Numbered from the stretch's first letter, positions 3,102-27,356 are shown. The stretch: 64,000 nt of DNA from Verrucomicrobiota bacterium (GCA_038214755.1 JBBQRQ010000011.1:1-64000); one strand, 5' to 3'. A program made the numbers and translations. Notes: generated by a model from the sequence alone, not told the origin.

Positions 3102-4322
3102 TTGAAAAATATGAAGCCGCCCAGCGATCAAGAACTAGAAGCGATCTTGAATGATTTGGAATCCGACCGGGCCGAGAGAAAGGAAGCGTGGTCTGGATCG
3201 GCTCCGGAAAAATGCCGGGAGGCCGTGTGCGCCTTCGCCAATGACCTGCCCAACCATCAGCAGCCGGGCATTGTTTTCATCGGAGCCGGTGACGACGGCC
3301 GCCCGTCGGGCGCGCCCGTCACCGATCAATTGCTGCTCACACTGGCAGACCTCAAGACCGACGGAAAGATCATCCCTTCACCCACCTTGACGGTCGAGCG
3401 GCGCACGCTTAAAGGCGGCGATATGGCGGTCGTCTGCGTCTGGCCGGCGGATGCGCCACCGGTGCGCTTCAGCGGGCGCATTTGGATCCGCATCGGCCCC
3501 CGTCGCGGTCTCGCTTCGGCGCAGGACGAGCGCATTCTCAATGAACGTCGGCGTCACCGGGACATTCCTTTTGACATTCAGCCGTGGCCTTCCGCCCGGC
3601 TGGCCGATCTTAGCCGCACCGCTTTTGAGGAGGAATATCTTCCCGGCGCCTTTGCTCCGGACGTGCTGGCGGCCAACGATCGCACCTATGAGCAGCGGCT
3701 GGCCGCCTGCCGCATGATCACCTCCGCCGATGACCCCACGCCTACCGTGCTGGGTCTGCTCACGCTGTCCCGCACGCCGCCGCGCTGGCTACCCGGCGCC
3801 TATGTCCAGTTCCTCCGCATCCAAGGCACGGCCTGGGCCGACCCGGTCGTGGACGAGGCCGTGCTTGATGGGCCGCTCGCCGCCATGATCCGGCGGCTGG
3901 ACGAGAAACTCTTATCCCACAACCGCGTGACCGTGGACTTCACTTCCACACCCATAGAAACCCGCCGCCACACCTATCCTCCGACCACCCTACAGCAACT
4001 CACCCGGAACGCGGTCATGCACCGCACCTACGAAGGCACCAACGCGCCAGCCCGCGTGTATTGGTTCGATGACCGCATCGAGATCATCAGCCCTGGCGGG
4101 CCTTACGGTAATGTCACTCCGGCTAACTTTGGCCAGCCCGGCTTCGCGGATTATCGCAATCCCCATCTGGCCGAGGCCATGCGCGTGCTCAACCTCGTAC
4201 AGCGTTTCGGCGTGGGCATCTCCATCGCCCAGGCCGCCCTGAAGGAGAACGGTAACCCGCCGATCTCCTTCCAGGTGGACTCCGCCATGGTTTTCGCCCG
4301 CGTCTATCCCGCCAAACTCTGA
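3102..4322 (+). CDS. AlbA_2 (Schlafen-like) DNA-binding domain plus HATPase_c_4-like ATP-binding protein (alternative start ATG 3111)
   Basis: ESDRAERKE, AVCAFAN, GIVFIG at the N-terminus; NAVMHRTY, FDDRIEIISPGG, YRNPHLAEAM, VQRFGVGI at the C-terminus. Confidence 0.8.
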   Translation: MKNMKPPSDQELEAILNDLESDRAERKEAWSGSAPEKCREAVCAFANDLPNHQQPGIVFIGAGDDGRPSGAPVTDQLLLTLADLKTDGKIIPSPTLTVERRTLKGGDMAVVCVWPADAPPVRFSGRIWIRIGPRRGLASAQDERILNERRRHRDIPFDIQPWPSARLADLSRTAFEEEYLPGAFAPDVLAANDRTYEQRLAACRMITSADDPTPTVLGLLTLSRTPPRWLPGAYVQFLRIQGTAWADPVVDEAVLDGPLAAMIRRLDEKLLSHNRVTVDFTSTPIETRRHTYPPTTLQQLTRNAVMHRTYEGTNAPARVYWFDDRIEIISPGGPYGNVTPANFGQPGFADYRNPHLAEAMRVLNLVQRFGVGISIAQAALKENGNPPISFQVDSAMVFARVYPAKL

Positions 4323-4324: not shown

Positions 4325-4471
4325 ATGCCCCGCCCACACCAGGACGCCTACGACCTCACCGACGCCGAAAAGCGCGACCTCATCAAACTCATCAATGAGG
4401 GAAAGCCGTTGCCGGAGAAATACCGCTTCCTACTTTTCAAAGACCAAGCTGAGGTCACCCACGGGCTGTGA
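4325..4471 (+). pseudogene. Truncated second copy of the mod 5' end (MPRPHQDAYDLTDAEKRDLIKLINEGKPLPEKYRFLLFKDQAEVTHGL*)
   Basis: First ~38 codons align with Mod MSRPHHDAYELTNAEKRDLTKLINEGKPLPEKYRFILF, then diverge to TGA at 4469-4471. Confidence 0.9.
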
Positions 4472-4482
4472 TCTCGACTATG

Positions 4483-4491
4483 TGCTATAAT
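4483..4491 (+). promoter_or_regulatory. Extended -10 sigma70 promoter (TGcTATAAT), probably leaderless
   Basis: Perfect TGnTATAAT 6 nt upstream of ATG 4498. Confidence 0.65.
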
Positions 4492-4497
4492 CTAACT

Positions 4498-7056
4498 ATG
4501 TCCCCGGTATTTCATTCTTCGCCTCGATTCTGCTGTCTTTTGACCACGATACTTTCGTTAGTGTTAGCTCCGGCGCTCCTCCGGGCGGGACTGTTGCCCG
4601 GCAACGTCTGGCCCAACCCCACGCTGGAATTGGACTCCAACGGCGACAGCGTTCCAAACTTCTGGAATCGCGGCGGCTCACTTACCGCGATTGATGTGTG
4701 GACGACTGTGCTGTCGGTCAGCCCGACGCATTCCTTCCAACTTAACGACACCAGCACCACGGCGTATGGCGAGTGGTATTCCGACCGGCTCAACATCAAC
4801 GGTGGAACGAATTACCAACTCCGCTACAACCTTCGTTACACCATCACCAACATCGGGCCGATGCGTGTGACGGTGAATTTTTACAATGCCGCCGACACTT
4901 ACGTCACCGGGGTGAGTTATCAGTTTTCTGGCGCACACAACTTCTGGGAGGAGATGACGCAACAGTTCACAACCCCGGCCAGCGCAGCGAAGCTCGGCCT
5001 CACGTTCACCTCCGGCGGTGGGTCTGATGTAACCGGCCAAGCCTGGCTGGACGACATTTCTCTGGCCACGGTAACCCCGGTCAACTCGCTGGTTCCTTAC
5101 ATTGAAAACTTCCCGTTGTTGCCCAATCCACTCGTCATCCGCGACTGGAAGCAAACCGCCAGCGATTATCATCAACTCGCGTTCAACCCATCCATCACCG
5201 GACAATATCTGCCGCTCTTGTATGAATACACCGTGAATACTTCCGGCGGTTACAGTGGATCTGCGTTCAGTCTGCCGAGTTACGTGGGCCGTGCGCGTGA
5301 CAGCGGCGAGGCGCTCACCGTGCTTGGCGCAGTGCTAGGTGGCACGCTCGCGGGGCTGAACATGGCCGCGCTCAACGGCAAGGACCGCGTCCAGCAGTGC
5401 GAGGCCTTTTACACTGTGGTCAATGGCCATGGACTTCTCTTCAACAACCTTAACTCGCAAGGTTCCGGCTCGGCTTGGTATGACATTTTTCCCAGCACCC
5501 TCTTTTACGAAATCGGCTCGCGCTATCCGGGTAGCGTCTCCTACCAGGCGAAGATGCGCGCCATCGCGGACAGTTGGCTCACCGCGTTGCCGGTGTTGAG
5601 CAATAACTGGGAGCACACAGGATTTAATTTCACGACTATGACGCCGACGGATTTCGCCTGGGACGAACCGGACATGGCCATCGGCATCGCGTGGCTCGAA
5701 TACATGGCTTACGCGCAGTTCAACGACGCAAAGTATCTTACCGGGGCGGACACTTGCATGACGCAGATGAACAGTCGCACGCCCAATCCGTTCTATGAAG
5801 TGCTGGGCTTCTTTGGGCCACCGCTGGCCGCCCGCATGAACGCGGAGTTGGGTCGCACTTACTCCACCAGCAAACATCTGAATTGGATTTTCGCTCCCAC
5901 CTCCGATGCCCGGCCCGGTTGGGGCTGCGAAAACTCGCGCTGGGGAAACTACGATGCCTATGGCCTTATGGGTAGCACCACCGATTCAAGCGGGTATGCC
6001 TTTTCGATGAACTCCTACTGCGCGCCCGGCCTCATCGCGCCCGTCGCCCGATACGAGCCGCAATTTGCGCGATTGCTCGGTCGCTGGTTGTTGCACGCCG
6101 CCGCCAACGCGAACCTCTTTTACCCAAACACGCTTCCGACGAACATGCAGTCGAGCGCGGCGTGGGTGCAGCAAACCGGCGTGCAAAGCATCTCTTACGA
6201 AGGCGCGCGGCGACTCGGCCCCACTACACCTTACGCTACTGGCGACGCCTCCGAGCCGGTGCAGGATTTAAATCCGTACGGCGCCTGGGGAAGTGGTTGG
6301 ATGGCGGCGTTGTTCCAAACTTCGAACGTACCGGGTATCCTCCAAATTGATTGCGTCGCCACTGAAGCGTTCGCGCCCGCGACTTGTCCTACTTACCTCT
6401 ACTACAATCCGTATGCAGTCGCCACGCAGGTCGTCGTAAACGTCGGGACAGGTATGAAACACCTTTACAACGCCGTCACTGGCGCGTTTCTTGCCACCAA
6501 TGTTTCAGGAAACACCACGCTCACGCTCGCGCCGGATTCAGCGATAGTCCTGGCACTGTGCCCCTCGACCAACGCCATCAGTCAGTCAGGCCGTAAGCTT
6601 CTGGTCGGTGGTGCCGTCATTGATTATTGGAATGGCATTCTCGACACCGACATCGACGGGCTGCCGAACTGGTGGGAAAGCCGCTACTTTGGAAGTATCA
6701 CCAACGCGCTACCTCAATCGCCGGCGGCCAATGGCTACAGTAACCTGCAATGCTACTGGCTCGGTCTTGACCCGACCAATCCGCTTTCAACCTTCCGCGT
6801 TCAGGCAAGTATCCAATCCGGCACCAGCTTCCCGCGAATCACCTGGTCGTCTGTGGGCGGCAAGACCTACACCGTCGAATACGCCAATAGCTTTGCGACT
6901 GCCGGTGCAAGTTTCACCCCCGCGTTGACGGTAACCGAAACCAACGTGCCTGCTGGAGTAGCGAGCACAGAAACTTTCTTGGATAACTACACTCTGACCG
7001 GCGGTCCCCCCAGCACGAACGCCCGCTACTACCGGGTGAAGCTGGTGCAACCATGA
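4498..7056 (+). CDS. Secreted putative glycoside hydrolase: signal peptide, CBM-like jelly-roll domain, large helical catalytic-like domain, DxDxDG repeat, C-terminal YYR domain
   Basis: Signal peptide ending ALLRA; GNVWPNPTLE...WLDDISL domain; aromatic/acidic core (WYDIFP, WDEPD, YEVLG, GYAFSMN, SYEG); DTDIDGLPNWWE; ends RYYRVKLVQP. Family not assignable by eye. Confidence 0.6.
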   Translation: MSPVFHSSPRFCCLLTTILSLVLAPALLRAGLLPGNVWPNPTLELDSNGDSVPNFWNRGGSLTAIDVWTTVLSVSPTHSFQLNDTSTTAYGEWYSDRLNINGGTNYQLRYNLRYTITNIGPMRVTVNFYNAADTYVTGVSYQFSGAHNFWEEMTQQFTTPASAAKLGLTFTSGGGSDVTGQAWLDDISLATVTPVNSLVPYIENFPLLPNPLVIRDWKQTASDYHQLAFNPSITGQYLPLLYEYTVNTSGGYSGSAFSLPSYVGRARDSGEALTVLGAVLGGTLAGLNMAALNGKDRVQQCEAFYTVVNGHGLLFNNLNSQGSGSAWYDIFPSTLFYEIGSRYPGSVSYQAKMRAIADSWLTALPVLSNNWEHTGFNFTTMTPTDFAWDEPDMAIGIAWLEYMAYAQFNDAKYLTGADTCMTQMNSRTPNPFYEVLGFFGPPLAARMNAELGRTYSTSKHLNWIFAPTSDARPGWGCENSRWGNYDAYGLMGSTTDSSGYAFSMNSYCAPGLIAPVARYEPQFARLLGRWLLHAAANANLFYPNTLPTNMQSSAAWVQQTGVQSISYEGARRLGPTTPYATGDASEPVQDLNPYGAWGSGWMAALFQTSNVPGILQIDCVATEAFAPATCPTYLYYNPYAVATQVVVNVGTGMKHLYNAVTGAFLATNVSGNTTLTLAPDSAIVLALCPSTNAISQSGRKLLVGGAVIDYWNGILDTDIDGLPNWWESRYFGSITNALPQSPAANGYSNLQCYWLGLDPTNPLSTFRVQASIQSGTSFPRITWSSVGGKTYTVEYANSFATAGASFTPALTVTETNVPAGVASTETFLDNYTLTGGPPSTNARYYRVKLVQP

Positions 7057-7116
7057 GCCGGCTCCTGAACGCATCTCAGTTTCTTTCAGTTCGAATTTCC
7101 TCTAATCCTGAATTTT

Positions 7117-7285
7117 GAAATCCGAATTGCCGAAGCCCGAAAGAAGCTCGAAATCCGAAGGCCGAAACTGCGCTTGGCCTCTCGCACGGAAAAGTGCTCC
7201 GGGGTCGCGCCTGACTGGCAGATATTCGCTTCGAGTCTTCGGATTTCTTTCGGCCCTTCGGATTACGAACTTCGGTCTTCGGGCT
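7117..7285. repeat. Heptamer-array inverted-repeat element
   Basis: GAAATCCGAA...CCGAAAGAAGCTCGAAATCCGAAGGCCGAA, spacer, then TTCGGATTTCTTTCGG...TTCGG. Confidence 0.8.
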
Positions 7286-7372
7286 AATCAGTTAGATTTA
7301 TTTTCGGAGCGAATTTGCGAAATCATGTGGCAGGGATGTGATTAAATGGGGGTGAGGCCGGAGCCGATCATC

Positions 7373-7502
7373 TTTGGGACTGCGGCGGCAGGACGCCGCT
7401 TTTCCTGCACGGTGAAGAAAACAACTGTATCCGTCTGTGCGAGCGCTTTCGGTATCAGCCAAGCGTGAAGCCAAAGCGGCGTCCTGCCGCCGCAGTCCAA
7501 AA
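7373..7502. repeat. REPIN-like palindrome (GGAC foot)
   Basis: GGACTGCGGCGGCAGGACGCCGCTTT / AAAGCGGCGTCCTGCCGCCGCAGTCC perfect inverted arms. Confidence 0.85.
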
Positions 7503-7723
7503 AGAAACTGCCTTCAGCCTCACCCATTTTTAATCACACCCAGACGGCAGTTGGGTTGCAAGTTCATGTTGCATGTGATACGCCCCGGCCCTCGTGTTTC
7601 ATTATCCTTGCTCTTATCATGCGGTGATAGTGAGATAGTAAAGTGTTCTCCACCGCTCCAGTGACTAAGCCCGAATTCCGAAATTCCAATCCCCGAACTC
7701 CGAAAGAAGGCCGAACTCACGAA

Positions 7724-9574
7724 ATGCCAGCGGGCCGGAGCGCCGGGTTGCCACCGGCTTTGGAGATCGAACCAGGAAAAGCCGGTGGCAAACCGGCGCT
7801 CCGCGTTTGGCGCGTGCTGTTGCGGGCCGCCGCTTTTTACCTGGCCGCTTCGTGTCTGTCCGTCGGAGCCAAAGGCGCTGAGTTGCCCAAAGCTTCCGCA
7901 CCCGCAGTCGTGATTCACAGTGTCCTGGTGGACGGCCAGGATCAGAAGTTCTCCGCCGAGGCTCCAACTCAGACTGAAGTTCGGAGCGAAATTGTTTCAA
8001 GTCGCAGCGCGAAGTCTGAACGGCTTCAAATCTCTTCTGCTGCCCAACGGTTGGAATTCAAGTTCGGTCCCGCTACCACCTCGTCTAATCCGCCGGTGCG
8101 ATTTCGCTATCAACTCGAGGGAATTGACAAAGATTGGCGCGAGGCAGGCGGCGAGATGCGTCTGACTATAAAATTTCTCGACTCAGCCAACAACACGGCT
8201 GGCGCGGTGGATTTCGTGGCCCGAGGCGAAAGTCCAGGTTGGGCGGGCAATGTCGCCGATTCCAGGTTGGTCCATCGTCGGGAGCAGATCACTGTGCCGC
8301 CGCGCGCGGCCTCGATGCAAATCGAACTCTTCTCCGGTGGCGACGAGCAAACCACCGGCATCATGGCCATTGATGATCTCTCCGTTTCTTTCGCGGGTGG
8401 GACCAACGCGAAACCTGAAGTCCCCGTGTTCAGTTCTCGCCATACCGGAAATAAAGACCTCGACCCTTCATTGGGAGTTCCACGCAATTGGATGCGGGAT
8501 GGCTCCAAACCGACCATTGCCCAGATGCGGCAGTTAGATGACAGAGAACCGCGACACGTTTTGGCCGTCGTGGATACTGACTCTACAAGATGGGGTGCCT
8601 GGCGGACGGACCAGAATTCGTCTGTCCCAGTCAACCCAGGGGATTCGCTCGTCTTGCTCTGGAACGAAATGTACAGCATCGGCTGGGGTGGCGCGCGCGA
8701 GGTCAGCTATAGTTATCTGCCAGCCGGTGAATATCATTTCCGGGTCAGAGCCGTCACGGAAACTGGCGAGTGGACGAATGAAATGACCTCCTTGGCGATC
8801 ACGGTGTTGCCGCCCTTCTGGAAGACAAGTTGGTTTTTGGCTGGAACCCTGGCTCTCGCGGTCGTGGCGCTGGTTGCTGGCGTCCGTTACGCGACGTGGC
8901 GCAAGATGCAATCGCAAGTTGAAATACTGGAAGGGCGACATGCCATCGAACAAGAGCGGGCGCGCATCGCTCGCGACCTGCATGATGATCTCGGGGCGAG
9001 TCTGACGCAAATTGCGTTGCTCAGTGAATTGGCTAAAGCTGACCTCGCCCAGCCGGATTTGGCGAAGACTCATCTGAACCAGATTTTCACTACGGTGGGG
9101 GAGTTGGCGCGGCAGTTGAATGAAATCGTGTGGGCCGTCAATCCGGCGAACGACACGCTGGAACATTTCACCAGTCACATTTGCAAGTTCGCCCAGGATT
9201 ATCTGAGTGCGGCCGGGATTCGTTGTCGGCTGGATTTCCCGGAATCCGTGTCGTGTTATCCCATGCCCTCCCTCGAGCGGCACAACCTTTTCCTCGCGGC
9301 CAAAGAGGCCCTGCATAACATCGTCAAACATGCGGAAGCGGAACAGGTTTGGCTCCGCTTGAAACTCGAACCAGATGTGTTGTCGTTGTTAATTGAAGAT
9401 GACGGAAAAGGCTGGGACGCAGAAATAATTACGGGGCCATCTAACGGCGTGGCGGGGGATGGATTGTCCAACATGCGGAAGCGCATGGAGCAACTCGGTG
9501 GTCGCTTCGCGCAACAGAGCAAATCCGGTAGCGGGACGACCGTGCGGCTGGTCTTGCCGCTTAGGAAATCATGA
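7724..9574 (+). CDS. Membrane sensor histidine kinase (Y_Y_Y domain with inserted CBM-like domain, one TM helix, HisKA_3, HATPase); start uncertain (7661 GTG, 7724 ATG or 7814 GTG)
   Basis: FRYQLEGIDKDW...YSYLPAGEYHFRV; PPFWKTSWF TM; ERARIARDLHDDLG; EALHNIVKHA, IEDDGKG, GDGLSNM. Confidence 0.9.
   Translation: MPAGRSAGLPPALEIEPGKAGGKPALRVWRVLLRAAAFYLAASCLSVGAKGAELPKASAPAVVIHSVLVDGQDQKFSAEAPTQTEVRSEIVSSRSAKSERLQISSAAQRLEFKFGPATTSSNPPVRFRYQLEGIDKDWREAGGEMRLTIKFLDSANNTAGAVDFVARGESPGWAGNVADSRLVHRREQITVPPRAASMQIELFSGGDEQTTGIMAIDDLSVSFAGGTNAKPEVPVFSSRHTGNKDLDPSLGVPRNWMRDGSKPTIAQMRQLDDREPRHVLAVVDTDSTRWGAWRTDQNSSVPVNPGDSLVLLWNEMYSIGWGGAREVSYSYLPAGEYHFRVRAVTETGEWTNEMTSLAITVLPPFWKTSWFLAGTLALAVVALVAGVRYATWRKMQSQVEILEGRHAIEQERARIARDLHDDLGASLTQIALLSELAKADLAQPDLAKTHLNQIFTTVGELARQLNEIVWAVNPANDTLEHFTSHICKFAQDYLSAAGIRCRLDFPESVSCYPMPSLERHNLFLAAKEALHNIVKHAEAEQVWLRLKLEPDVLSLLIEDDGKGWDAEIITGPSNGVAGDGLSNMRKRMEQLGGRFAQQSKSGSGTTVRLVLPLRKS
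7736..7803. repeat. REP-like palindrome (GGAG foot) at the kinase 5' end
   Basis: CGGAGCGCCGGGTTGCCACCGGCTTT / AAAGCCGGTGGCAAACCGGCGCTCCG. Confidence 0.8.
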
Positions 9575-9580
9575 AGACGA

Positions 9581-9749
9581 AAATCCGAAATCCGAATCCC
9601 CGAAATCCGAAAGAAGTCCGAAATCCGAAGGCCGAATATGACTTCCACCTCTCCCATGGAAATGGGCTTCCGGGACCGCGTCTCTCCACGGTCGCTTCGG
9701 CTTCGGACTTCGGATTTCTTTCGGATTTCGGATTTCGGACTTCGGATTT
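9581..9749. repeat. Heptamer-array inverted-repeat element between kinase and regulator
   Basis: (AAATCCG)n...AAAGAAGTCCGAAATCCGAAGGCCGAA, spacer, TTCGGACTTCGGATTTCTTTCGGATTTCGGATTTCGG. Confidence 0.85.
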
Positions 9750-9752
9750 GTC

Positions 9753-9842
9753 TCAGAGCGTGTCTAAGAAACGTAGCCTCCGACGTGAGGAGGCGGATTT
9801 CTCCAATCTCCGTTATATCCGCTTCCCTACGTCAGCGGCTAC
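9753..9842. mobile_element. One-ended IS1031-like MITE (TCA|GAGCGTGTCTAAGAAAC) abutting a GTAG REPIN
   Basis: End matches the TIRs at 18049 and 49662; followed by GTAGCCTCCGACGTGAGGAGGCGGA...TCCGCTTCCCTACGTCAGCGGCTAC. Confidence 0.6.
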
Positions 9843-9865: not shown

Positions 9866-10510
9866 ATGACAAAAATTGATGACACTCTAATTACCGTAGC
9901 GATTGTTGAAGACGATGCCCAGGTACGACAAAGCCTTGCAGACATTCTCAAGCGCGGCCCGGGTGTGGTTTGCGTCGGCGAGCATGGCAACGCGGAGGAG
10001 GCCTTGCGCGAAATCCCGCGCGTGCAACCCAAGGTGGTGTTGATGGACATCAACCTGCCCGGCATGGACGGTGTTCATTGCGTGAGGCGGCTGAGCGAGT
10101 TGGCCCCGAAAACACAGGTGGTCATGCTCACCGTCTATGACAACACTGACACTATTTTCAACTCGCTGGCGGCTGGCGCCAGCGGCTATTTGCTCAAGCC
10201 CATCAGTTCCGCACAACTCCTCTCGGCGGTCAAGGACGTGTATGCCGGTGGCGCTCCGATGACGAGCAACATTGCACGAAAAGTAGTGCAAGTGTTCAAG
10301 CAACCTGCGCCCTCCACCGGTGAAACGGAAAACCTTTCGCCGCGTGAGCAGGAGGTGCTGGATTTTCTGGCCAAAGGCTATCTCTACAAGGAAATCGCCG
10401 AGCAACTCAACATCAGCTATGGCACGGTTCACACCTATATCGAGCGAATTTTCAAAAAGTTGCATGTTCGCTCGCGCGCGCAAGCCGTGGCAAAATATCT
10501 CGGCGCGTAA
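9866..10510 (+). CDS. NarL/FixJ-family response regulator (REC plus LuxR HTH)
   Basis: IVEDD, LMDINLPGMDG, GYLLK, LSPREQEVL...KEIAEQLNISYGTVHTY. Confidence 0.95.
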   Translation: MTKIDDTLITVAIVEDDAQVRQSLADILKRGPGVVCVGEHGNAEEALREIPRVQPKVVLMDINLPGMDGVHCVRRLSELAPKTQVVMLTVYDNTDTIFNSLAAGASGYLLKPISSAQLLSAVKDVYAGGAPMTSNIARKVVQVFKQPAPSTGETENLSPREQEVLDFLAKGYLYKEIAEQLNISYGTVHTYIERIFKKLHVRSRAQAVAKYLGA

Positions 10511-10719: not shown

Positions 10720-11412
10720 ATGAAAACCAATCAACCTATAACAACCAGGCTATTGCCCATAACTCTCGCTCTGTTTTTCGTTTCCGCTTCGCTGCGGGCC
10801 GATGTCACTCCCGGCAATTTCTGGGTCAATCCAACCTTTGAAACCGGCGTCAACCCCGGCCTGACGACTGGCACGCCCACTAACTGGAACCGCGGCGGCG
10901 CTGACGGGAGCATCCTTCAGTGGGTCACGGCAAAATCGGTGAGCCCCACGCACTCGCTGGCCGTGATCAAACCCGTCGCCGGGGCCTTCGGCGAATGGTA
11001 TTCCGACGTCTCCATCGTCGGCCTGGCTGGCTTCGGCAACACGGTCAGCTTGCACTGGCACGAGATGTACGGCATCACCAACGGTGAGATGCGCGTGACG
11101 GTGCGGTTCTTGGATGGCGGCGGCAACGGGCCCGACAACCATTTCGTCGTGACAGGCAATAGCGCCGGTTGGGCCGGCACCGTGGGGAGTTCGACGTTCT
11201 CGGTGCGGAATGTACCATTGCTGGTAAACCAGCCGGGCGCGGTGACGATGCGCATCCAATTGGTATCCGGCGGTGGAGATACCACGATCGGCAGCTATCT
11301 CATCGATGATCTCTCCGTCGTCGCCGTACCAGAACCTTCCACCATCGCGCTGCTAGCCGTAGGCGGATTGGTCGGAGTAAGTGCGTTGCGCCGCCGCAAG
11401 ATCGCGCGTTAA
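10720..11412 (+). CDS. PEP-CTERM surface protein with one CBM-like jelly-roll domain
   Basis: Signal peptide; GNFWVNPTFE...IDDLSV; VPEPSTIALLAVGGLVGVSALRRRK. Confidence 0.9.
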   Translation: MKTNQPITTRLLPITLALFFVSASLRADVTPGNFWVNPTFETGVNPGLTTGTPTNWNRGGADGSILQWVTAKSVSPTHSLAVIKPVAGAFGEWYSDVSIVGLAGFGNTVSLHWHEMYGITNGEMRVTVRFLDGGGNGPDNHFVVTGNSAGWAGTVGSSTFSVRNVPLLVNQPGAVTMRIQLVSGGGDTTIGSYLIDDLSVVAVPEPSTIALLAVGGLVGVSALRRRKIAR

Positions 11413-11638: not shown

Positions 11639-14125
11639 ATGAATGTCCGAGTCCCGCTGTTTTTTATAACGGCGCTGTTAATAGTGACCAGTCCAGCCCG
11701 CGCTGACTTGCTGCCCAACAATTTCTGGGTGAATCCAACTTTCGAGAGCGGCACCAACCTCAACCAAACAACGGGCACACCCTCAAACTGGACTCGTGAT
11801 GGCGGTGACACCACCATCTGTCAGGTGATCACCAACAACTCTGTCAGTTCAAGTCATTCGTTGGCAGTCATAGACACCACTGGTAGCTTCGGCGAGTGGC
11901 GCTCCGACGTCACTCTCAGCGGCAACGCCACCAACGGCGACGCGTTGAATATCCAGTGGTATGAAATGTATAACCTCAGCGCCCCCGAGATGCGCCTAAC
12001 CGTGCAGTTCTTTAACGCCACCACCAACGTCGTCGGAGAAACCCACTTTACCACCTCCGGCACGAGTAGCGCCGGATGGGTGAGCACCATCGCGAATTCG
12101 ACGTTTACGAAGCGGAATGCGGCGTTGGTGGTGCCGGCCGGCGCGGTGAGGATGCGCTGTGCCCTGGTCTCCGGCGGAGACCCAGCCATTACCGGTGTAA
12201 TGGTCATTGATGATTTATCGGTGGCCCGCGTTAACTTGTTGCCCGGCAATTTCTGGGTGAACTCGGCTTTCGAGAGCGGCACTAACCTCAACCAGACTAA
12301 CGGCACACCCGCAAATTGGACACGCGACGGCGGTGACACGAATATCTGTCAGGTGACCACCAATAACTCCGTGAGCTCGAGCCATTCGTTAGCCGTCATA
12401 GATAATAATGCTAACACTATTACCGGTTACGGCGAGTGGCGCTCCGATGTCAACCTCATCGGCAATGCCAGTCCCGGCGACACATTGGATATCCAGTGGT
12501 TTCAAATGTATAACATGAACTTTCCCAGTATGCGCCTAACCGTGCAGTTCTTTAACGCCAGCAGCAACGGCGTCGGAACAACCGACTTTACCACCGGCAC
12601 GAATACAAGTAGTGCCGGATGGGTGAGCACCATCGCGAATTCGACGTTTACGAAGCGGAATGGGGTGTTGTTGGTGCCGGTCGGCGCGGTGAGGATGCGC
12701 TGTTCCCTGGTCTCCGGCGGTTTCCCAGGCATCACCGGTGTAATGGTCATTGACGACTTATCCGTGGCGCGCGTGCCGGTACCAGGTAATTTCTGGGTGA
12801 ACTCGAGTTTCGAGCTCGGCACTGACCTCGACCAGACCAACGGCACACCCGCAAATTGGACTCGCGGCGGTGGTGACGTGACTATCGATCAGGTGACTAC
12901 CAGCAACTCTGTTAGCTTGAGTCATTCGTTAGCCGTCATAGATAACAATACAGACGTTGATCTCGGTTACGGCGAGTGGTACTCCGACGTCACTCTCATC
13001 GGCAACGCCACAAACGGCCAAGCGTTGAATATCCAGTGGTATGAAATGTATAACGTGAGCGTCGGTACCCAACATGAGATGCGCTTGACCGCGCAGTTCT
13101 TTAACGCCGCCAACGACCTCGTCGGAGAAACCCACTTTGTCACCGTCGGCACGAGTAGCGCCGGATGGGTGAGCACCATTGCGGATTCGACGTTCACGAA
13201 GCGGAATGGGACGTTGTTCGTGCCGGTTGGCGCGGTGAGGATGCGCTGTTCCCTGGTCTCCGGCGGCTCCGGAGCTCCCACCGGGGTAATGGTCATCGAC
13301 GACCTGACGGTAGCCCTCAATTCAGCAACGCCAGTAATACCTCCGACCGTCCTGGCAGGTAACTTTTTCCCGAACCCGACGTTTGAGGTGGGATCTCAGT
13401 TGGACGATCCCGCAGCCGCATCTGAGTCGGGTTGGACGCGCGGCGGCAATGATGCCACGATGGATCAGGTCACCACGAGTAACTCCGTCAGCCCCACGCA
13501 CTCGCTGTCCCTCGTGGATAATTCCTTGAGTTACGGCGAATGGTATCAGTACCTCACCCTGTCCGGCGTGGCGGCGGGCGACGTGCTCGACGTGCAATTC
13601 TTCCGAATCTACAGCACGACAAACGGTCCTATGCGTTTGACCTTCGGATTCCGCACTGCCGGGGGCGCTAGCTTTGGGCCGCAATACGATTTCCTCGGGG
13701 GTGACCCTTTCGGTGGCCAAAGCCCGGGCTGGCTGGGCAGCGTCGCCGCATCGCCCTTCGAGCGGGTTTCGGGCCGCTTCCTCGTGCCCGCGGGCACCGG
13801 GCAACTCTCGGTTAAATTCGCCTCCGGCGGTGCCGGGGATGTAATGGGGACGATGGTCATTGACGACCTGTCCGTGCGAATCAGCAGGCCGGTCATCACG
13901 GAGATTGCGTCCCAGGTCGGCGGCAAGAACCTCACGTGGTTAAGCATGCCCAGCAAGACCTATACGGTGCAGTTCGCCGCCACGCTCTTGAACACGAATA
14001 CGGTCTGGACGTCGCTCGCCACAAACCTGGTTTCGGGCGGTGGGACGAACGGTCTCTCGACGTCGTATTTGGACACGGCCACCCATGCTGGCAACACCGG
14101 CTTCTATCGTGTCATACAGGAGTAA
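11639..14125 (+). CDS. Secreted protein with four tandem ~175-190-aa CBM-like repeats and a C-terminal FYR domain
   Basis: ATG 11639 (MNVRVPLFFITALLIVTSPARA signal peptide); repeats start near 11717, 12245, 12785 and 13358, each from NFWVN/NFFPN to MVIDDL; ends GFYRVIQE. Confidence 0.85.
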   Translation: MNVRVPLFFITALLIVTSPARADLLPNNFWVNPTFESGTNLNQTTGTPSNWTRDGGDTTICQVITNNSVSSSHSLAVIDTTGSFGEWRSDVTLSGNATNGDALNIQWYEMYNLSAPEMRLTVQFFNATTNVVGETHFTTSGTSSAGWVSTIANSTFTKRNAALVVPAGAVRMRCALVSGGDPAITGVMVIDDLSVARVNLLPGNFWVNSAFESGTNLNQTNGTPANWTRDGGDTNICQVTTNNSVSSSHSLAVIDNNANTITGYGEWRSDVNLIGNASPGDTLDIQWFQMYNMNFPSMRLTVQFFNASSNGVGTTDFTTGTNTSSAGWVSTIANSTFTKRNGVLLVPVGAVRMRCSLVSGGFPGITGVMVIDDLSVARVPVPGNFWVNSSFELGTDLDQTNGTPANWTRGGGDVTIDQVTTSNSVSLSHSLAVIDNNTDVDLGYGEWYSDVTLIGNATNGQALNIQWYEMYNVSVGTQHEMRLTAQFFNAANDLVGETHFVTVGTSSAGWVSTIADSTFTKRNGTLFVPVGAVRMRCSLVSGGSGAPTGVMVIDDLTVALNSATPVIPPTVLAGNFFPNPTFEVGSQLDDPAAASESGWTRGGNDATMDQVTTSNSVSPTHSLSLVDNSLSYGEWYQYLTLSGVAAGDVLDVQFFRIYSTTNGPMRLTFGFRTAGGASFGPQYDFLGGDPFGGQSPGWLGSVAASPFERVSGRFLVPAGTGQLSVKFASGGAGDVMGTMVIDDLSVRISRPVITEIASQVGGKNLTWLSMPSKTYTVQFAATLLNTNTVWTSLATNLVSGGGTNGLSTSYLDTATHAGNTGFYRVIQE

Positions 14126-14227: not shown

Positions 14228-15112
14228 ATGAACATCCTGATGCAGAAACAAAAATACCGCAGCGAGAAACTTCCGTCGAAGGGTTCAGCTTTTACGCTGA
14301 TTGAACTCCTGGTCGTCATTGCCATTATCGCCATCCTGGCTGGCCTGCTCCTGCCTGCCCTAAGCAAGGCCAAGGTAAGAGCACAGGCGGCTCAGTGCTT
14401 GAGCAACACCAAGCAATTGATGCTGGGCTGGATCATGTACTCCGGCGACAACCAGGATCGGGTCGCCAATAACTTCGGGGTGACGGAGACGATTGCTGAA
14501 GTCACCGGCGGCACCTACCGGAATTGGGTCAACAACGTGATGAGTTGGACCACCGACAGCATGAACACCAATACTCTCCTGATCAAGAACGGCATTCTGT
14601 CCCCTTACGTCGGCGGCAATCTCGGCGTTTACAAGTGTCCGGCAGACAATTTCCTCAGCGCTCCCCAGCGGGCAAGCCGGTTCACCTCCCGCACACGGAG
14701 CCTGTCCATGAACGCTTTTTTCGGCCCGTTTAACAGCAATCCCAATGGCGCCTGGGCACAAGGTCGCAACGCTTTTGCGACTGATTGGCGTCAATGGCTC
14801 AAGCTGACGTTAGTCCCAAAACCTTCCAACTTCTTTGTCGTCATTGATGAACATGCTGACGGCATCAACGACGGTTATTACTTGAATAATCCGGATCCAA
14901 ATGCCACCAGCAAGTGGGGGGATGCTCCAGCTTCCTATCATGGCGGCGCCTGCGGGATTTCCTTTGCGGATGGACATTCTGAAATTCACAAATGGAGAAG
15001 CGTCACCACGAAATTTCCTGTCACCACCACCAGTTACAACCCACCTAACTTCGATACATTGGGTCGTCAGGATTACCGTTGGCTCGTGGAACGCACTGCC
15101 GTGAAGTATTAG
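14228..15112 (+). CDS. Prepilin-type N-terminal cleavage/methylation protein with H-X9-DG C-terminal motif (DUF1559-like)
   Basis: [44 protein letters not shown]. Confidence 0.9.
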
Positions 15113-15376: not shown

Positions 15377-18028
15377 ATGCAAACTAGAATAGAATCGTTA
15401 CAGATCAATTGGAAGTTCGCCATTCCCCTTGCTGCAGCCTTGCTGCTCGCCGTCAACTCAACTCACGCCGCTAACTTGCTGGTTAACCCGGGTTTCGAGT
15501 CCAATAGTGGCCACAACATTCCTGTTGGCTGGACACGTTTCGCGCCGCCGAATGCCCAGACCAATGGTAACTATTGGGTCGAAAGTGCCGGAAACCTCGC
15601 ACATTCTGGAAGTCTCTATTGGAAGGAGTGGGGCGCATCTTATCTGCCGGCCCCCACCAACAACGTGGCGGGCCTCTACCAGGACTTCGGCAGTGCTGCT
15701 GGCTCAACCTATCAAGCCAGTGGATGGTTCTTCACCAAAGGCAGTGACGCGATGGGACCGGATTCCTACGTTTGGGTCGAAGTTTCCTTTTTCGGTTCGA
15801 GCAGTAATCTTCTGGCTCTTTACAAGTCGGATAGGTTCATGCCCAGTGTAGGGACCGACGCCTGGTTTCAATATCAAGTCACCAATGCTTGCGACGTGTC
15901 GGCACCGGTTCCAACTGGCGATCCCTATTTCACCACCTATGCCGTGACCGGTTCGGTGAGCCAGTTGGTAGCGCCCATCGGAACTCAACGAGTCCGATAC
16001 CGTTTTGCCTACCTACAGTCGGGCAGTCAAGGTGGGTCCTGTTATCTTGACGATGCAGTGTTGAACCAGATCAGCGGCCCGATCGCGCCCGTCATCAGCA
16101 ACCTTTTTCCGGTCAACCTGATCTTCGTCAAGCCCAGTGACGGCATCACCTTTAATGTAAGATCGCCCAGTGGCTTTACCATCAACACTAATGCCATTCA
16201 CCTGATCGTTAACGGGGCGGATGTATCGGGGAACCTGGCTATCACCGGTTCTTCCTCCAACAAAAACGTCGCTTACTCCGGGCTGCAATCCAATCTGACT
16301 TACACGGCGTCGATTACGGTGACAGATGCCTTTGGTTTAAGCGCCAGTGCGAGCACTTACTTTGAGACAACGTGGGTGGGCGTACCTCCGGTTGTGTATC
16401 TGTGGGAAGCAGAAGACTTTGATTTTAGCAACGGAATGTATCTGAACAATCCAGACCCTTGCAGCACGAGCGGCAATCCCAACTGTTATTTTGGAAAAGT
16501 CGGTGTCGAAGGTGTGGATGAACATAATTTGGGCGCGAGCGGCGGCCATCTTTATCGCCCGGACGATCTCATCGCCACTGGCGTCTCGGGAGATTACTTG
16601 CGGAAAAACCTCGTCGTTGCCAATCGGCTCGATTACCGAATTGACCCATTCATATTCAGCGAGTGGATTAACTATACCCGCGACTGGTCCAACGGCACCT
16701 ATTGGGTGCTGGGACGACTAGCAACCGGGGAAGGCTTATCCGGGACATTGACGTTGAGCAAGGTGAATCCCGACACTACAACTACCGACCTTGGCACGTT
16801 CACGATTGACAATGGCTTGGGGTGGACTACTTACCAAAATGTTTTTCTGAAGGATACCAATGGCAACCTTGCGAATGTAACGCTCAATGGCAAGGCCACG
16901 TTGCGCGTGACCAGCGGAGGAGATCTACTGCCGGGCTTTTTCATGCTCACCGTCGCCCAGGTCGATTTGCCCATTTTAAGCAACATGTATCCTACCGGAG
17001 CGCATCCCTTCGAGTACACCAACGCTTTTAGTTTCACTGTGACTACCACGGGCGCCACCTTTCCTGTCGGCGGCATCAAACTGAACCTCGACGGGATCGA
17101 CGTTTCCTCGGGACTGGTCATCACCGGCTCCAGCTCGAATAAGAACGTGGTTTATCCCCTACTACAACCCAACGCGATCCATACGGCCATTTTTACCGGG
17201 ACCAACTCTCTCGATCACGGCATCAGCGTGACGAATCGTTTCGATACCTTCAGCCAAAGTAATATTATGGTTGAAGCGGAGGATTTCGACTATGATGGCG
17301 GACAGTATGTTGGTAATTGGTTCCCCGATGCCTATGCAGGATTCGGAGCAACTACCAATATAGATTTCCAGCACTCGACGATAGAAGGCGAGCAGTTTAT
17401 CTATCGTGCCGACGGCATCCCCGAAGAGATCGCGCGGGACTATCTAAGACAGAGCTTTATTGAGGTTGGCGGAATTGATTATCACCTGGCTTGGTATGGA
17501 ATCGGTGACTGGGCCAATTACACCCGGACTTATCCTACAGGCAACTTCCGTATCTATGCGCGTTCCGCTGGTTTCGGCAGCTATACAATTTACTTGGATC
17601 AGGTTGTTAGCGGCGCGGGGACGACCAACCAAGTCACGCGCAGACTTGGCCGATGGAGCGCCACGGGGCCGAATAACCAATCCCACCATTGGGTGGCGTT
17701 GACGGATGATGGGATGGCAGCGCCAGCCATAGTCAAACTGGGCGGCGTCAACACCCTTCGCCTTACTACCCCAACCGGCAATTGCTATCCGACCTACTTC
17801 ATGTTAGTCCCAGCATCTGGCATTACTCTATCAGCGGCCAGGTCAGGTAGTAACGTGATCATTTCTTTCCCGACCCAATCAGGCGTTATCTACCGCGTCT
17901 TTTACCGCGATGCTTTGACTACGGGCACCTGGACGCTTCTTAACACTGTGCTGGGTGACGGCGCGATCAAAGCCGTGACCAATGCCGCGAGCGCAACTCA
18001 ACGGTACTTTAAGGTCGTCGCGCCATAG
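15377..18028 (+). CDS. Secreted multi-CBM-like protein (NLLVNPGFE domain, two EAEDFD/CBM6-like modules with Ig-like linkers, C-terminal YFK domain)
   Basis: Signal peptide; duplicated [Ig-like + EAEDFD...W(I/A)NYTR] unit; ends QRYFKVVAP. Confidence 0.75.
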   Translation: MQTRIESLQINWKFAIPLAAALLLAVNSTHAANLLVNPGFESNSGHNIPVGWTRFAPPNAQTNGNYWVESAGNLAHSGSLYWKEWGASYLPAPTNNVAGLYQDFGSAAGSTYQASGWFFTKGSDAMGPDSYVWVEVSFFGSSSNLLALYKSDRFMPSVGTDAWFQYQVTNACDVSAPVPTGDPYFTTYAVTGSVSQLVAPIGTQRVRYRFAYLQSGSQGGSCYLDDAVLNQISGPIAPVISNLFPVNLIFVKPSDGITFNVRSPSGFTINTNAIHLIVNGADVSGNLAITGSSSNKNVAYSGLQSNLTYTASITVTDAFGLSASASTYFETTWVGVPPVVYLWEAEDFDFSNGMYLNNPDPCSTSGNPNCYFGKVGVEGVDEHNLGASGGHLYRPDDLIATGVSGDYLRKNLVVANRLDYRIDPFIFSEWINYTRDWSNGTYWVLGRLATGEGLSGTLTLSKVNPDTTTTDLGTFTIDNGLGWTTYQNVFLKDTNGNLANVTLNGKATLRVTSGGDLLPGFFMLTVAQVDLPILSNMYPTGAHPFEYTNAFSFTVTTTGATFPVGGIKLNLDGIDVSSGLVITGSSSNKNVVYPLLQPNAIHTAIFTGTNSLDHGISVTNRFDTFSQSNIMVEAEDFDYDGGQYVGNWFPDAYAGFGATTNIDFQHSTIEGEQFIYRADGIPEEIARDYLRQSFIEVGGIDYHLAWYGIGDWANYTRTYPTGNFRIYARSAGFGSYTIYLDQVVSGAGTTNQVTRRLGRWSATGPNNQSHHWVALTDDGMAAPAIVKLGGVNTLRLTTPTGNCYPTYFMLVPASGITLSAARSGSNVIISFPTQSGVIYRVFYRDALTTGTWTLLNTVLGDGAIKAVTNAASATQRYFKVVAP

Positions 18029-18032
18029 GCTT

Positions 18033-19985
18033 GTGAAACGAACTCTTACAGCATGTCTGAAAATTCCATCCGCCTGTAGCAGCCGAGGTAACGAGGCTCT
18101 TACTTTTTCGGCAAACCTCCGTCAAAGCGAGACCACGCCGGAAGTCAGAGCCTCGTTACCTCGGCTGCTACGATTTTTCAGACACGTTCTTAGTCTCCAA
18201 ATCCTCCTGGCGGTCGCTGTTCAAACGGCGCTCGCCATCCAAGCCCCGAATGGGTTGGTGAGCCGGACAGGCGATCTAAGCGTCGTATTGCACTGGGACA
18301 AGAATACCGAGACGAACCTCGCGGGCTATCGTGTTTATCGTTCGCTCAATAGCAGCGGCCCATACAGCCTGCGGACTACCAGTCTATTAACCGATCCAGG
18401 TTTTTGCGATCTGACGGTTAGTAATGGGCAGACAAACTATTACCAAATCACGGCCGTAACTTCTACTTCCCAGGAGAGTCTTCCTTCACTCACCCAGGCG
18501 GCGCTACCTCATCCCTTTGCTGACGATGATGAGTTCCTTGAGTACCTCCAACAAACCAGTTTTGATTACTTTTGGTACTTGGCTAATCCGAGCAATGGGT
18601 TGGTGCCGGACCGAAGCGCGGTCGGCTCGGCCTGTAGCATCGCCGCAGTAGGCTTTGGGTTGAGCGCCATCGCAATCGGTATCGACCATGGTTGGATCAC
18701 ACGTAACCAAGGAGTGGCGCGAGTCCTTACCACCCTCAATACTTTTCTCCAGAAGCCGCAGGGAACGAACGTCGCAGGCATGATTGGATATAAAGGTTGG
18801 TTCTACCATTTCCTGGATATGAACACCGCCTTGCGCGCCAACTCGGAACTCTCCTCCATCGATACAGCTTTGTTGCTGGCGGGGATACTTCATGCCAAAC
18901 AGTATTTCGATAGCACCAACTCCGATGAGACTGCCATTCGCACGACAGCGGACGCGATATTTAACCGCGTAGATTGGAATTGGATGGCGCAAGGAACCAA
19001 CGCCCTATCTATGGGCTGGTTCCCCACGTCAGGCTTTATCGCGGGCAATTGGATTGGCTATAACGAAGGGATGATTCTTTATTGCCTTGGCCTTGGCACT
19101 GCGACGAACCCGTTGCCTGCTTCAGCATGGAACCGTTGGACCAACAGCTATATCTGGTCCACCAATTATGGTCAGACCTATGTTCAGTTCGCTCCTTTGT
19201 TCGGGCACCAGTATTCCCATTGCTGGATTGATTTCCGCCATGTTGCGGACGCCTATATGAACAGCCATAGCAGCACTTACTTTGAGAACTCGCGTCGCGC
19301 AAGCCTAGCCCAACGGACTTACTCCATCGCCAATCCGGGACAAAAGGTGGGATATAGCAGCAACGTTTGGGGATTGACCGCGTGTGATGGTCCAACTGGA
19401 TACGCGGCGCGCGGCCTCCCACCCGCCGGACTCGATGACGGCACGATTGCGCCCACTGCCGCCGGCGGTTCGATAGCCTTCACTCCCGAATACTCGGTGC
19501 CGACATTACGCTACTTCTATAGGCAATACCGGCCGCGCATTTGGACTGCGTATGGGTTCCGCGACGCATTTAACCTCGGCGCTCAATGGTACGCCACCGA
19601 TGAGCTTGGAATCGACCAAGGCCCCATTGTCATCATGATCGAGAACTATCGCACCCAACGCGTTTGGCGGCTCTTCATGAAAAACCCGGAGGTCCAACGC
19701 GGGTTGGAGCGGGCGAATTTTGTCTCACTTCCTTTTATCGCGCCAAGGTTGCAGACACTGCCTTTTCAAACAGCATTTAACCTCGACTGGGACTCCACCA
19801 CCGGCCGTAGCTATCAAGTCGAATACTCGCCGGACCTTGGCACTTGGTTTGCCTCGCCGACGGGGGAAATCCTCGCCGCCGGTCCAACTGCCAGTTGGAC
19901 TGATAACGGTCCGCCTGCTACCGCAACCGTGCCTTACAGCGTCGCTCAACGATTCTACCGCGTGTTCCAATTCGGCGCGCCTTAA
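18033..19985 (+). CDS. GH144-like (DUF3131/glucoamylase-family) putative endo-beta-1,2-glucanase with Fn3 domain and C-terminal FYR domain
   Basis: GLVPDRS, SIAAVGFGL, GWFYHFLD, ELSSIDT, GYNEGM, LFGHQYSHCWIDFR, WGLTACD, DGTIAPTA, YGFRDAFN, GIDQGPIVIMIENYR; GTG start 4 nt after the upstream stop. Confidence 0.85.
   Translation: MKRTLTACLKIPSACSSRGNEALTFSANLRQSETTPEVRASLPRLLRFFRHVLSLQILLAVAVQTALAIQAPNGLVSRTGDLSVVLHWDKNTETNLAGYRVYRSLNSSGPYSLRTTSLLTDPGFCDLTVSNGQTNYYQITAVTSTSQESLPSLTQAALPHPFADDDEFLEYLQQTSFDYFWYLANPSNGLVPDRSAVGSACSIAAVGFGLSAIAIGIDHGWITRNQGVARVLTTLNTFLQKPQGTNVAGMIGYKGWFYHFLDMNTALRANSELSSIDTALLLAGILHAKQYFDSTNSDETAIRTTADAIFNRVDWNWMAQGTNALSMGWFPTSGFIAGNWIGYNEGMILYCLGLGTATNPLPASAWNRWTNSYIWSTNYGQTYVQFAPLFGHQYSHCWIDFRHVADAYMNSHSSTYFENSRRASLAQRTYSIANPGQKVGYSSNVWGLTACDGPTGYAARGLPPAGLDDGTIAPTAAGGSIAFTPEYSVPTLRYFYRQYRPRIWTAYGFRDAFNLGAQWYATDELGIDQGPIVIMIENYRTQRVWRLFMKNPEVQRGLERANFVSLPFIAPRLQTLPFQTAFNLDWDSTTGRSYQVEYSPDLGTWFASPTGEILAAGPTASWTDNGPPATATVPYSVAQRFYRVFQFGAP
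18046..18192. mobile_element. IS1031-like MITE (141 bp plus TTA target duplication) carrying a GTAG REPIN, in frame in the GH144-like signal peptide
   Basis: TTA|CAGCATGTCTGAAAAT...TTTTCAGACACGTTC|TTA; internal GTAGCAGCCGAGGTAACGAGGCTC / GAGCCTCGTTACCTCGGCTGCTAC. Confidence 0.8.
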
Positions 19986-19987: not shown

Positions 19988-20046
19988 GAAATCCGAAGTT
20001 CGAAATCCGAAATCCGAAAGAAATCCGAAATCCGAAGGCCGAAGCC
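19988..20046. repeat. Left arm only of a heptamer-array element
   Basis: GAAATCCGAAGTTCGAAATCCGAAATCCGAAAGAAATCCGAAATCCGAAGGCCGAAGCC directly after the stop codon. Confidence 0.75.
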
Positions 20047-20127
20047 CAGGAAATCTCCCAAGCGCACAAGAAACGTCGAGGAACCACGAAGGTCAGGTTG
20101 AAGTAACTTTGAGGTTTCCGTAGCAAG

Positions 20128-21605: not shown

Positions 21606-22418
21606 ATGAAAGCATCATCCTTCACCAAAACTCGTCGTGGTTTTACGTTGATTGAGTTGCTGGTTGTCATCGCGATTATCGCCATCTTAGCTGGGTTGCT
21701 TTTGCCGGCTCTGGCCAAGGCCAAGGAAAAAGCGAACCGGATTAAGTGCGCCAGCAATCTCAAGCAAATGGGGCTGGCCAACATCATGTATGCCGGTGAC
21801 AACCGAGGCGCGTTGAGCGGAGGAACCGGATATTACGATGACAATTTGAATTGGATGTATAAAGGCTTTGCCAAGTCCCCTCAAATGTTTGTCTGCCCGA
21901 GTACCAGAAATTATGTCCGGGCGGATGTCTTCGCTCCAAACCCTCTGACGGGCGAACAGGAGCTTTTAGATTTGCAGGGATTAACCCTGAACAAGAACGC
22001 GATGTACGGTTATAGCTACGAAAATTTTTCGTGGTGGCGGAAAGATTCGCAGGGCAGTCATGAATCAACTGGGCCTACGGCGGCAGAAGCAGCTTTCAGC
22101 AAAAACCAAGTCCGCAAAACCGAATCGAGAGTCGGCTCCAGAAGGCATCAAAACGCGGGGGATGGTCTTGGGCTGTTGGGTAATCTTCCGGGCCCCACTC
22201 GAACATGGCTGACCCTTGACGGAGATAACAACAGCGCGAGCAACCCCTTGAAGATTTACAATAACTACCCCGATAAAAACGACAATCACGGTGAGACTGG
22301 AGCCAACGCGAATTTTGCGGACGGACATGTGGAGTGGGTTAGAGAAAGGGGCAAATATTATCTGATAACCCGCGAGCTATCCCAGGATGAAGGACAGGGC
22401 GGAAAGAATGTCCAGTAA
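21606..22418 (+). CDS. Prepilin-type / H-X9-DG-like protein (DUF1559-like)
   Basis: [44 protein letters not shown]. Confidence 0.9.
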
Positions 22419-27312: not shown

Positions 27313-27356
27313 AAACTTGTTTATATTGCTTGGCGGAAGCGACCAACAGCCCCGCA

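Follow-up and report, generated by a model that had tools for sequence, protein, structure and literature searches.

Sensors that combine beta-propellers with a Y_Y_Y domain are 700-900 residues long and bind oligosaccharides directly (PMC3243724). In one such protein, BT4663, the Y_Y_Y domain is a spacer engaged in dimerization (PMC5121618), and a scissor motion has been reported (PMC8534201). Other sensors resemble carbohydrate-binding modules (CBMs): Shewanella PghK has a CBM9/DOMON-like sensor in which a predicted beta subdomain interrupts the host subdomain (bioRxiv 2023.05.05.539549), and Pseudomonas LadS and RetS use the periplasmic sensor DISMED2 (PMC4866733). Additionally, domain insertion and circular permutation are known to co-occur in nature, as in the insertion domains of RNA polymerase (RNAP), in PDZ domains and in a permutation that links two CBM families (PMC13114784, PMC13552848). 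Here we analyze a stretch of 64,000 nucleotides from Verrucomicrobiota bacterium (GCA_038214755.1 JBBQRQ010000011.1:1-64000), called the window below, on which all coordinates are counted. It encodes a sensor histidine kinase whose Y_Y_Y domain is interrupted by a module of 174 residues (8153-8674). The two halves of this module stand in the order B-then-A, the reverse of the A-B order found in secreted proteins encoded nearby.

The reading we prefer, with a probability of about 0.62, is that the protein is a single-pass HisKA_3 sensor lacking propellers, in which a permuted CBM4/9-like beta-sandwich inserted in the Y_Y_Y domain binds an oligosaccharide directly. The parts of the kinase are as follows.

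7643..9574, + strand: sensor histidine kinase open reading frame (ORF; P0001), 643 residues, with Pfam HisKA_3, HATPase_c and Y_Y_Y
7814..7876, + strand: signal-peptide-like hydrophobic segment, residues 58-78, read from the sequence alone
7907..8152, + strand: N-terminal part of the Y_Y_Y domain (immunoglobulin (Ig)/fibronectin type III (Fn3)-like), residues 89-170, including a low-confidence loop; from the model and a structural match
8153..8386, + strand: insert half B, residues 171-248, the C-terminal half of the unpermuted CBM4/9-like unit; from alignment and profiles
8387..8446, + strand: 20-residue linker between the old C- and N-termini, with a degenerate relic of the N-x-x-F-E start motif; from alignment
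8447..8674, + strand: insert half A, residues 269-344, the N-terminal half of the unpermuted unit; from alignment and profiles
8675..8692, + strand: six-residue exit; DSSP of the model gives one long strand, residues 335-348, from the insert through the exit
8693..8818, + strand: C-terminal part of the Y_Y_Y domain, residues 351-392; Pfam PF07495 at 350-389 and a structural match
8831..8893, + strand: single transmembrane-like segment, about residues 397-417, read from the sequence
8954..9565, + strand: HisKA_3 (His447 at 8981-8983) and HATPase_c; from Pfam

The true start of the kinase probably lies later than 7643, and a GTG at 7814 would open the signal-peptide-like segment, which only about 30 residues separate from strand A of the Y_Y_Y domain. 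HisKA_3 (49.7 bits) and HATPase_c (49.2 bits) both exceed their Pfam cut-offs, the phospho-accepting residue is His447, and motifs resembling the N, G1, G2 and G3 boxes are present in 8954..9565. Pfam found no Reg_prop propeller match in the kinase, in agreement with the original prediction for this DNA, which had described the beta-propellers as absent.

The reversed order is most apparent when the insert is compared with the unpermuted units of the window. Re-ordered to A-then-B, it aligns by BLASTP with the first repeat of the array protein at 11639-14125 over 152/154 residues at 40% identity (E 1e-34), and it also matches the three other array repeats, the protein at 4468-7056 in its N-terminal domain (E 2e-14) and a PEP-CTERM protein (E 4e-28). 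Left in its native order, the insert matches the single-unit proteins by its separate halves only. Comparison of profiles gave the same result, with a probability of 100 over 158 columns between re-ordered kinase inserts and secreted units and only 79 columns in native order. The B-then-A order in the original prediction therefore stands, and the re-ordered alignment, which that prediction had named as its own test, is significant. The module is a circular permutant in that its homologous halves are swapped and covariation supports the same contacts between them.

That the module lies within the Y_Y_Y domain, as also predicted, is borne out by Pfam, by motif spacing and by modeling. Pfam finds Y_Y_Y in two stretches of the kinase (best 350-389, E 4e-11, 43 bits). 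The gap between the Y_Y_Y tryptophan and the motif Y-x-x-L-x-x-G-x-Y is 170-203 residues (240 in one protein; 181/245 family kinases with both motifs), whereas in 68 ordinary Y_Y_Y loci it is 9-11 residues in 63 and 21 in two, and was not found in three. A related-locus search of genome contigs, which returned ordinary Y_Y_Y proteins only, supplied these spacing controls. An AlphaFold2 model of residues 88-392, built on a 149-sequence alignment, is all beta with a predicted local distance difference test score (pLDDT) of 90.5 and a predicted template modeling score (pTM) of 0.87. The structures it matches best are all Y_Y_Y domains, those of BT3049 (3v9f; Z 12.2, root-mean-square deviation (rmsd) 2.3, 100 residues aligned), BT4663 (4a2l; Z 12.1, rmsd 2.6, 103 aligned) and BT4673 (3ott; Z 11.1, rmsd 2.6, 104 aligned), followed by a match at Z 8.6. 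Because these alignments span model residues 1 to about 305, the split Y_Y_Y halves are shown by the computed model to close and fold as one domain.

The pTM and shared covariation likewise point to halves A and B forming one sandwich, against the second outcome that the original prediction had named as refuting it, halves that do not fold into one domain. In the top 60 pairs, 8/35 inter-half couplings recur in both the permuted set (245 rows) and the unpermuted one (601 rows), against a random mean of 1.3 and a maximum of 6 in 500 draws. Direct structural searches added little. Foldseek with the sensor model was uninformative (best TM 0.17), and no CBM appears among the 50 structural matches listed for that model, although this excludes nothing since the Ig-like part fills the list. 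Folding of the unpermuted repeat from a single sequence was poor (pLDDT 46.8), and that model's matches to CBM27, CBM16 and CBM22 at Z about 8-9, not above those to non-CBM jelly-rolls, are a lead only.

The kinase is not a one-off but a member of an old and conserved family in soil and sediment bacteria. One homologue search returned 105 proteins; another returned 903 representatives at E <=0.001, 252 of them at 1e-10, of which the best 150 are listed and many of the weaker ones are expected to be plain Y_Y_Y proteins. Among 258 collected proteins, 148 read yN-B-A-yC-kinase. The A-B order and a kinase domain never occur together: all 194 proteins with a kinase domain lack the former, and all A-B proteins lack the latter. 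Insert matches, with kinases and arrays pooled, are found in 52/301 genomes of the order, and a search with the family profile, in which nine candidates were scored per genome, showed full-length kinases in 25 of 151 genomes of the order, 40 in total and six each in two of them (G042, G110). In a sample of the phylum, the unit profile matches 8/401 genomes. The source names of the homologues read Verrucomicrobia, in two cases subdivision 3, except for two given as Candidatus Binatia. An assembly artefact is ruled out because the architecture recurs in many independent proteins and genomes. The expectation that homologous kinases would carry different inserts at the same Y_Y_Y site fared less well, as split Y_Y_Y halves were found in 0/28 other HisKA_3 kinases in a small survey of five genomes, chosen by length.

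Several variants were noted around the family. Longer members of about 850-900 residues occur (P0101, P0214, P0102 and P0192; G384 and G630); P0101 and P0214 have an N-terminal LamG domain ahead of the split Y_Y_Y, and P0175, at 995 residues, has an unclassified N-terminal part. At L246 (2603-4469) the kinase is divided between two frames close to where the insert ends, through either a frameshift or a sequencing error. Closely related HisKA_3 cores at L200, L211, L251, L253, L257 and L259 have a different beta-rich sensor ahead of the membrane helix; four of the six give weak matches to the sugar-binding domain of glycoside hydrolase (GH) family 2. Those at L194 and L260 have a third, unnamed sensor. 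Within the order, sugar-binding-like sensors seem to be exchanged on a common kinase core.

The identity of the module was traced through its secreted counterparts. A profile of 50 secreted units aligned with 21 Pfam CBM_4_9 members of this Verrucomicrobiota order (the near-full-length ones out of 30 loci returned) with a probability of 96, E 4e-9 and 143 colinear columns, where control profiles for F5/8, CBM6 and LamG did not exceed 1.0 and those of 20 column shuffles did not exceed 0.69. An Atlas feature search returned CBM_4_9 and galactose-binding-like clusters at 0.92. By computed homology the unpermuted unit is thus shown to be a distant relative of CBM4/9, and so probably a beta-sandwich; since the secreted units are colinear with CBM_4_9, A-B is the CBM4/9 order, and the B-A order of the kinase is most likely derived. 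Individual scores are lower: the best unit of the window reaches 16.6 bits against Pfam CBM4/9 (PF02018; gathering cut-off 25.9), the unit of the protein at 4468-7056 matches CBM_4_9 at E 0.01, below the cut-off (1/50 units reaches E 0.01), and single CBM_4_9 members score 8.5 bits at most against the unit profile. A distant relative of the 4468-7056 protein in another genome (G074) does pass the CBM_4_9 cut-off, at 26.5 bits. The start motif N-x-x-F-E and end motif D-D, which we take to form a structural calcium site, are kept in 88-100% of secreted units and 20-43% of kinases; the window kinase retains D-D and has lost F-E.

Residues of the sheet suggest where a ligand might sit. Core positions Trp200, Pro219, Ser231, Gly239, Trp283, Asp311 and Trp320 are near-constant in kinases and secreted units. 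The opposite sheet face is polar or aromatic, invariant inside subfamilies and different between them, and in the window kinase the putative pocket there comprises Arg173, Asp190, Glu228, Phe230, Arg285, Asp286, Trp317 and Arg321. The 69-member subfamily has ten invariant positions whose residues are found in <=10% of other kinases, Trp317, Ala319, Ala188, Asp190, Glu228 and Phe230 among them, although invariance alone is weak here because 53/146 columns are invariant overall. The largest other cluster (87 members) has His317 (100%), Glu319, Asp286 and Arg177, and the secreted units have Tyr317, Glu319, Tyr321 and Arg173. Such a subfamily-specific face is what one would expect of a sugar pocket whose ligand varies from paralogue to paralogue. 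It is doubtful that the kinase detects the ligand bound by its regulon, as had been suggested, because its putative pocket has other residues than its neighbors do. The window's subfamily occurs with GH130 and a major facilitator superfamily (MFS) transporter at L114, L115 and L246, and the window itself carries a PF10091 protein at 17982-19985, a family linked to GH144 beta-1,2-glucanases. From these neighbors, a mannoside or glucoside would be our best guess for the subfamily's ligand, held with low confidence.

In the mechanism we propose, sugar freed by neighboring enzymes would bind the putative pocket face. A 14-residue strand that runs in the model from the insert into the exit linker suggests a stiff two-stranded stalk, which would hand movement of the insert to the membrane helix and to the Y_Y_Y domain, whose role here would match the one it has in BT4663. 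A shift of the insert against Y_Y_Y would move the membrane helices in a manner analogous to the BT4663 scissor motion, His447 would be phosphorylated, and the adjacent NarL-type regulator would turn on the glycan locus. Given the strand alternation and topology of Fn3 domains, the insertion loop presumably lies at the membrane-distal pole, the usual propeller position and the one used in BT4663. The regulator (9866..10510) is likely the cognate partner of the kinase, and members of its cluster adjoin most family kinases. A tentative extension, which we rate at a little under even odds, is that the family forms an unrecognized, lineage-wide class of compact glycan receptors in which a single ancient permutation turned a CBM4/9-like module into a natural allosteric switch within Y_Y_Y, this switch replaced 700-residue propellers, and paralogues recoded about ten pocket positions.

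Several results weigh against an oligosaccharide-binding insert, and some of them favor an insert that does not bind the signal but docks an accessory periplasmic protein, or one that senses a non-sugar molecule or the state of the envelope. Glycosidases or lyases lie near 24/49 family loci and 9/20 control HisKA_3 loci (p=0.80), and with CBMs and sulfatases added the counts are 37/49 and 11/20 (p=0.15), so glycosidases are not enriched over control kinases; many family loci have no neighbor that is a carbohydrate-active enzyme. These neighbors were counted by hand from Pfam tables in a span of seven genes, three to one side of the kinase and four to the other; the control loci, drawn from three genomes, contain some further probable glycan sensors. 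GH99-like, GH92 or alpha-1,3-glucanase neighbors are found at 17/49 family loci and 1/20 controls (p=0.014), but this set was chosen post hoc and kin are not independent. The insert falls below every Pfam cut-off, the unit profiles matched nothing under E 0.05 among PDB sequences, and the re-ordered kinase profile matches CBM_4_9 weakly (probability 22), so that the case for kinship with CBM4/9 depends on the secreted units. Kinases have an eroded calcium-site motif, many non-CBM jelly-rolls match at similar Z, and CBM-like folds have non-sugar roles too. Overlap in covariation is near chance at other cut-offs (1/10 in the top 30; 9/49 in the top 100, random maximum 9) and is therefore supportive at one cut-off, not decisive. 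Lastly, the pocket face was set by strand alternation and covariation, with no coordinates, after conservation had been seen. Against docking or non-sugar sensing stand the subfamily-invariant patch of Arg, Asp, Glu and aromatic residues and the homology to CBM4/9, and apart from the regulator no single accessory gene recurs beside the family kinases. We consider it unlikely, though a serious contender.

The history of the permutation bears on the remaining alternatives. In a FastTree phylogeny of 174 dereplicated rows, all 72 secreted units lie on one side of a branch with support 99 and 102 kinase inserts on the other. IQ-TREE recovered the same split with support 99/88 (96/92 without the linker and calcium-motif columns) from 50 rows, 16 chosen and 34 random (29 kinase inserts), with nine long-branch kinases excluded from the draw. 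A clade of the window insert with three local repeats is rejected (approximately unbiased (AU) test, p=0.004), and its placement as sister to all secreted units is compatible with the data (p=0.165). The window insert is 31-43% identical to its neighbors and 48% identical to its best secreted match, which belongs to another genome. Unpermuted genes lie nearby only at L114 and L115, both of the window's subfamily, and 47/49 other kinase loci have none in the fetched flanks (these cover 50 kinases at 49 loci, out of about 70 kinase matches; many flanks stop at contig ends). With this query, arrays were found and no such kinase in five genomes, three of them at least 90% complete. One old permutation fits best, because a single branch splits kinases from secreted units, the local clade is rejected and linkage is rare. 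A recent or local graft is largely ruled out, as one old event is common to a large family and the insert is not sister to the local repeats.

We propose that the permutation arose once, early in this Verrucomicrobiota order, when an A-B gene would have been opened at the hairpin between its halves. This would have created adjacent new termini fitting a loop of Y_Y_Y, the propellers being lost; the family would then have duplicated and its paralogues diverged at one sheet face. An ancient permutation by way of a duplicated A-B gene is plausible, and the local linkage to arrays may be either retained from the origin or a later regulatory recruitment.

The opposite direction, in which the permuted form in kinases came first and gave rise to the secreted arrays through tandem duplication and a return, by trimming, to A-B, would explain why kinase inserts vary more among themselves (median 33% identity) than the collected secreted units do (50%) and why a midpoint root puts the secreted group among the kinases. 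The secreted sample is biased toward close matches, however, and it is the secreted units that have the CBM4/9 order and retain its start and end motifs more often than the kinases do. As the trees are unrooted we keep this direction, but at low odds.

Less likely still is the origin put forward in the original prediction, namely the graft of a B+A fragment, excised from a tandem array (11639-14125 or a close ancestor of it, for instance), into a kinase that reads its neighbors' ligand. It draws on the linkage of the window's subfamily to unpermuted genes in 6/10 loci (the remaining four are on 1.5-5.4 kb contigs), on the position of the window insert among the kinase inserts closest to secreted units (mean 40%; family median about 31%), on the native-order B+linker+A stretch that spans every repeat junction, and on the compatible sister placement. 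The rejected local clade, the rarity of linkage, the kinase-free array genomes, the grouping of all kinase inserts on one side of one branch in both trees and the foreign best secreted match all count against it, as do the face residues, Trp317/Ala319/Asp190/Glu228 here and Tyr (92%), Glu (98%), His (58%) and Ser (46%) in secreted units. Pairing of the insert with homologous secreted or PEP-CTERM proteins, whose state it would report, agrees with the homology and gene linkage in the window's subfamily but is very unlikely given the 47 loci and five genomes above and a propeller kinase beside the same PEP-CTERM and array homologues at L120. At this locus (G196:C140, 4613-10376) a canonical propeller-Y_Y_Y-HisKA_3 kinase and its regulator lie beside these homologues, which shows that both types of sensor can accompany this gene set.

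The oligosaccharide-binding reading places the kinase in a glycan locus with the following genes. In the source genome, unit matches comprise six unpermuted units and one kinase insert, all in the window.

4468..7056, + strand: secreted protein that joins an unclassified enzyme-like domain to an unpermuted unit of reduced length (4591-5067)
9866..10510, + strand: NarL/LuxR-type response regulator (receiver and GerE helix-turn-helix); from Pfam
10720..11412, + strand: PEP-CTERM protein with one unpermuted unit at 10804-11322; from Pfam and the unit profile
11639..14125, + strand: secreted four-unit array protein, units at 11708-12226, 12236-12769, 12779-13315 and 13346-13879

The enzyme-like domain of the 4468-7056 protein has no Pfam match and no PDB sequence match. 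It belongs to a large unnamed family near large unnamed Bacteroidota clusters, one of them auto-named GH88, and is a candidate new glycoside hydrolase family. Two of its paralogues lie beside GH130 and an MFS transporter (L114:5359-7590, L115:9635-11818), and the homologue of the 4468-7056 gene in L169 (G518:C92) is broken across two frames just past the unpermuted unit. Intergenic repeats rich in GAAATCCGAA, arranged as inverted pairs, flank the kinase gene (7103-7280, 7666-7729, 9573-9757, 19988-20062); one overlaps the longest possible kinase start, and by appearance they resemble repetitive extragenic palindromic (REP) elements. Further stem-loops lie at 7334-7541 and 7736-7803. Immediately upstream of the glycan locus are a DNA-methyltransferase-like ORF (133-2688), recognized by motifs in its translation, and a Schlafen/AlbA_2-RecG-C protein (3102-4322). 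Three prepilin-type N-methylation genes (14228-15112, 21606-22418, 26434-27360) are interspersed with secreted and PEP-CTERM genes; two of the three have weak DUF1559 matches, and members of their cluster occur in 19/61 loci.

Y_Y_Y kinases and CBM-like sensors are already known, and the family reveals no new signaling principle. The architecture itself is undescribed in the literature searched, where most subscription papers, supplements and CIRPIN-DB (which may hold the pair) were outside the scope, and the original prediction of a new sensor architecture holds. Because neither Pfam, NCBIfam nor sequential structure search picks up the module, hundreds of these kinases are labelled only 'signal transduction histidine kinase'. 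A soluble sensor of 300 residues with specific putative pocket residues offers a testable handle on sensing in an abundant, mostly uncultured soil and sediment lineage. If the reading is true, the paralogues, up to six per genome, would form a code from which the specificities of glycan loci in this poorly cultured order could be read.

Like the Bacteroides hybrid two-component systems (HTCS) BT4663, BT3049 and BT4673, the family kinases have a Y_Y_Y domain directly before one membrane helix (Z 11-12) and are proposed to sense oligosaccharides, and kinases of about 1000-1100 residues from the same order match the family profile from the C-terminal part of Y_Y_Y onward (E about 1e-110). In contrast to HTCS, they lack the two Reg_prop propellers, their Y_Y_Y domain is interrupted by about 180 residues, and the sensor has about 300 residues rather than 700-900. 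Furthermore, the kinase ends after HATPase_c and is followed by a separate receiver-GerE gene, where HTCS are hybrids with a fused receiver and AraC domain. The unpermuted unit resembles CBM4/9 (PF02018; CBM16/22/27-like folds) in its colinear profile, its start and end motifs and possibly, by a low-confidence model, a jelly-roll fold; it differs in that it scores below the Pfam cut-off and has an extra segment of about 15 residues (not in the 4468-7056 unit), and in that the kinase copy is circularly permuted with an eroded calcium motif. PghK and LadS/RetS similarly use a carbohydrate-binding-like module as a periplasmic sensor, but with other module families and hosts, and the accessible parts of those papers describe neither a Y_Y_Y domain nor a permutation. 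The RNAP, PDZ and CBM cases, as far as the accessible text of their reports goes, name no sensor kinase, Y_Y_Y host or CBM4/9-like insert. Unlike in those cases, the permuted and unpermuted forms stand here side by side at 40% identity, an unusually clear natural example of circular permutation coupled to domain insertion, the same trick by which protein engineers build switches.

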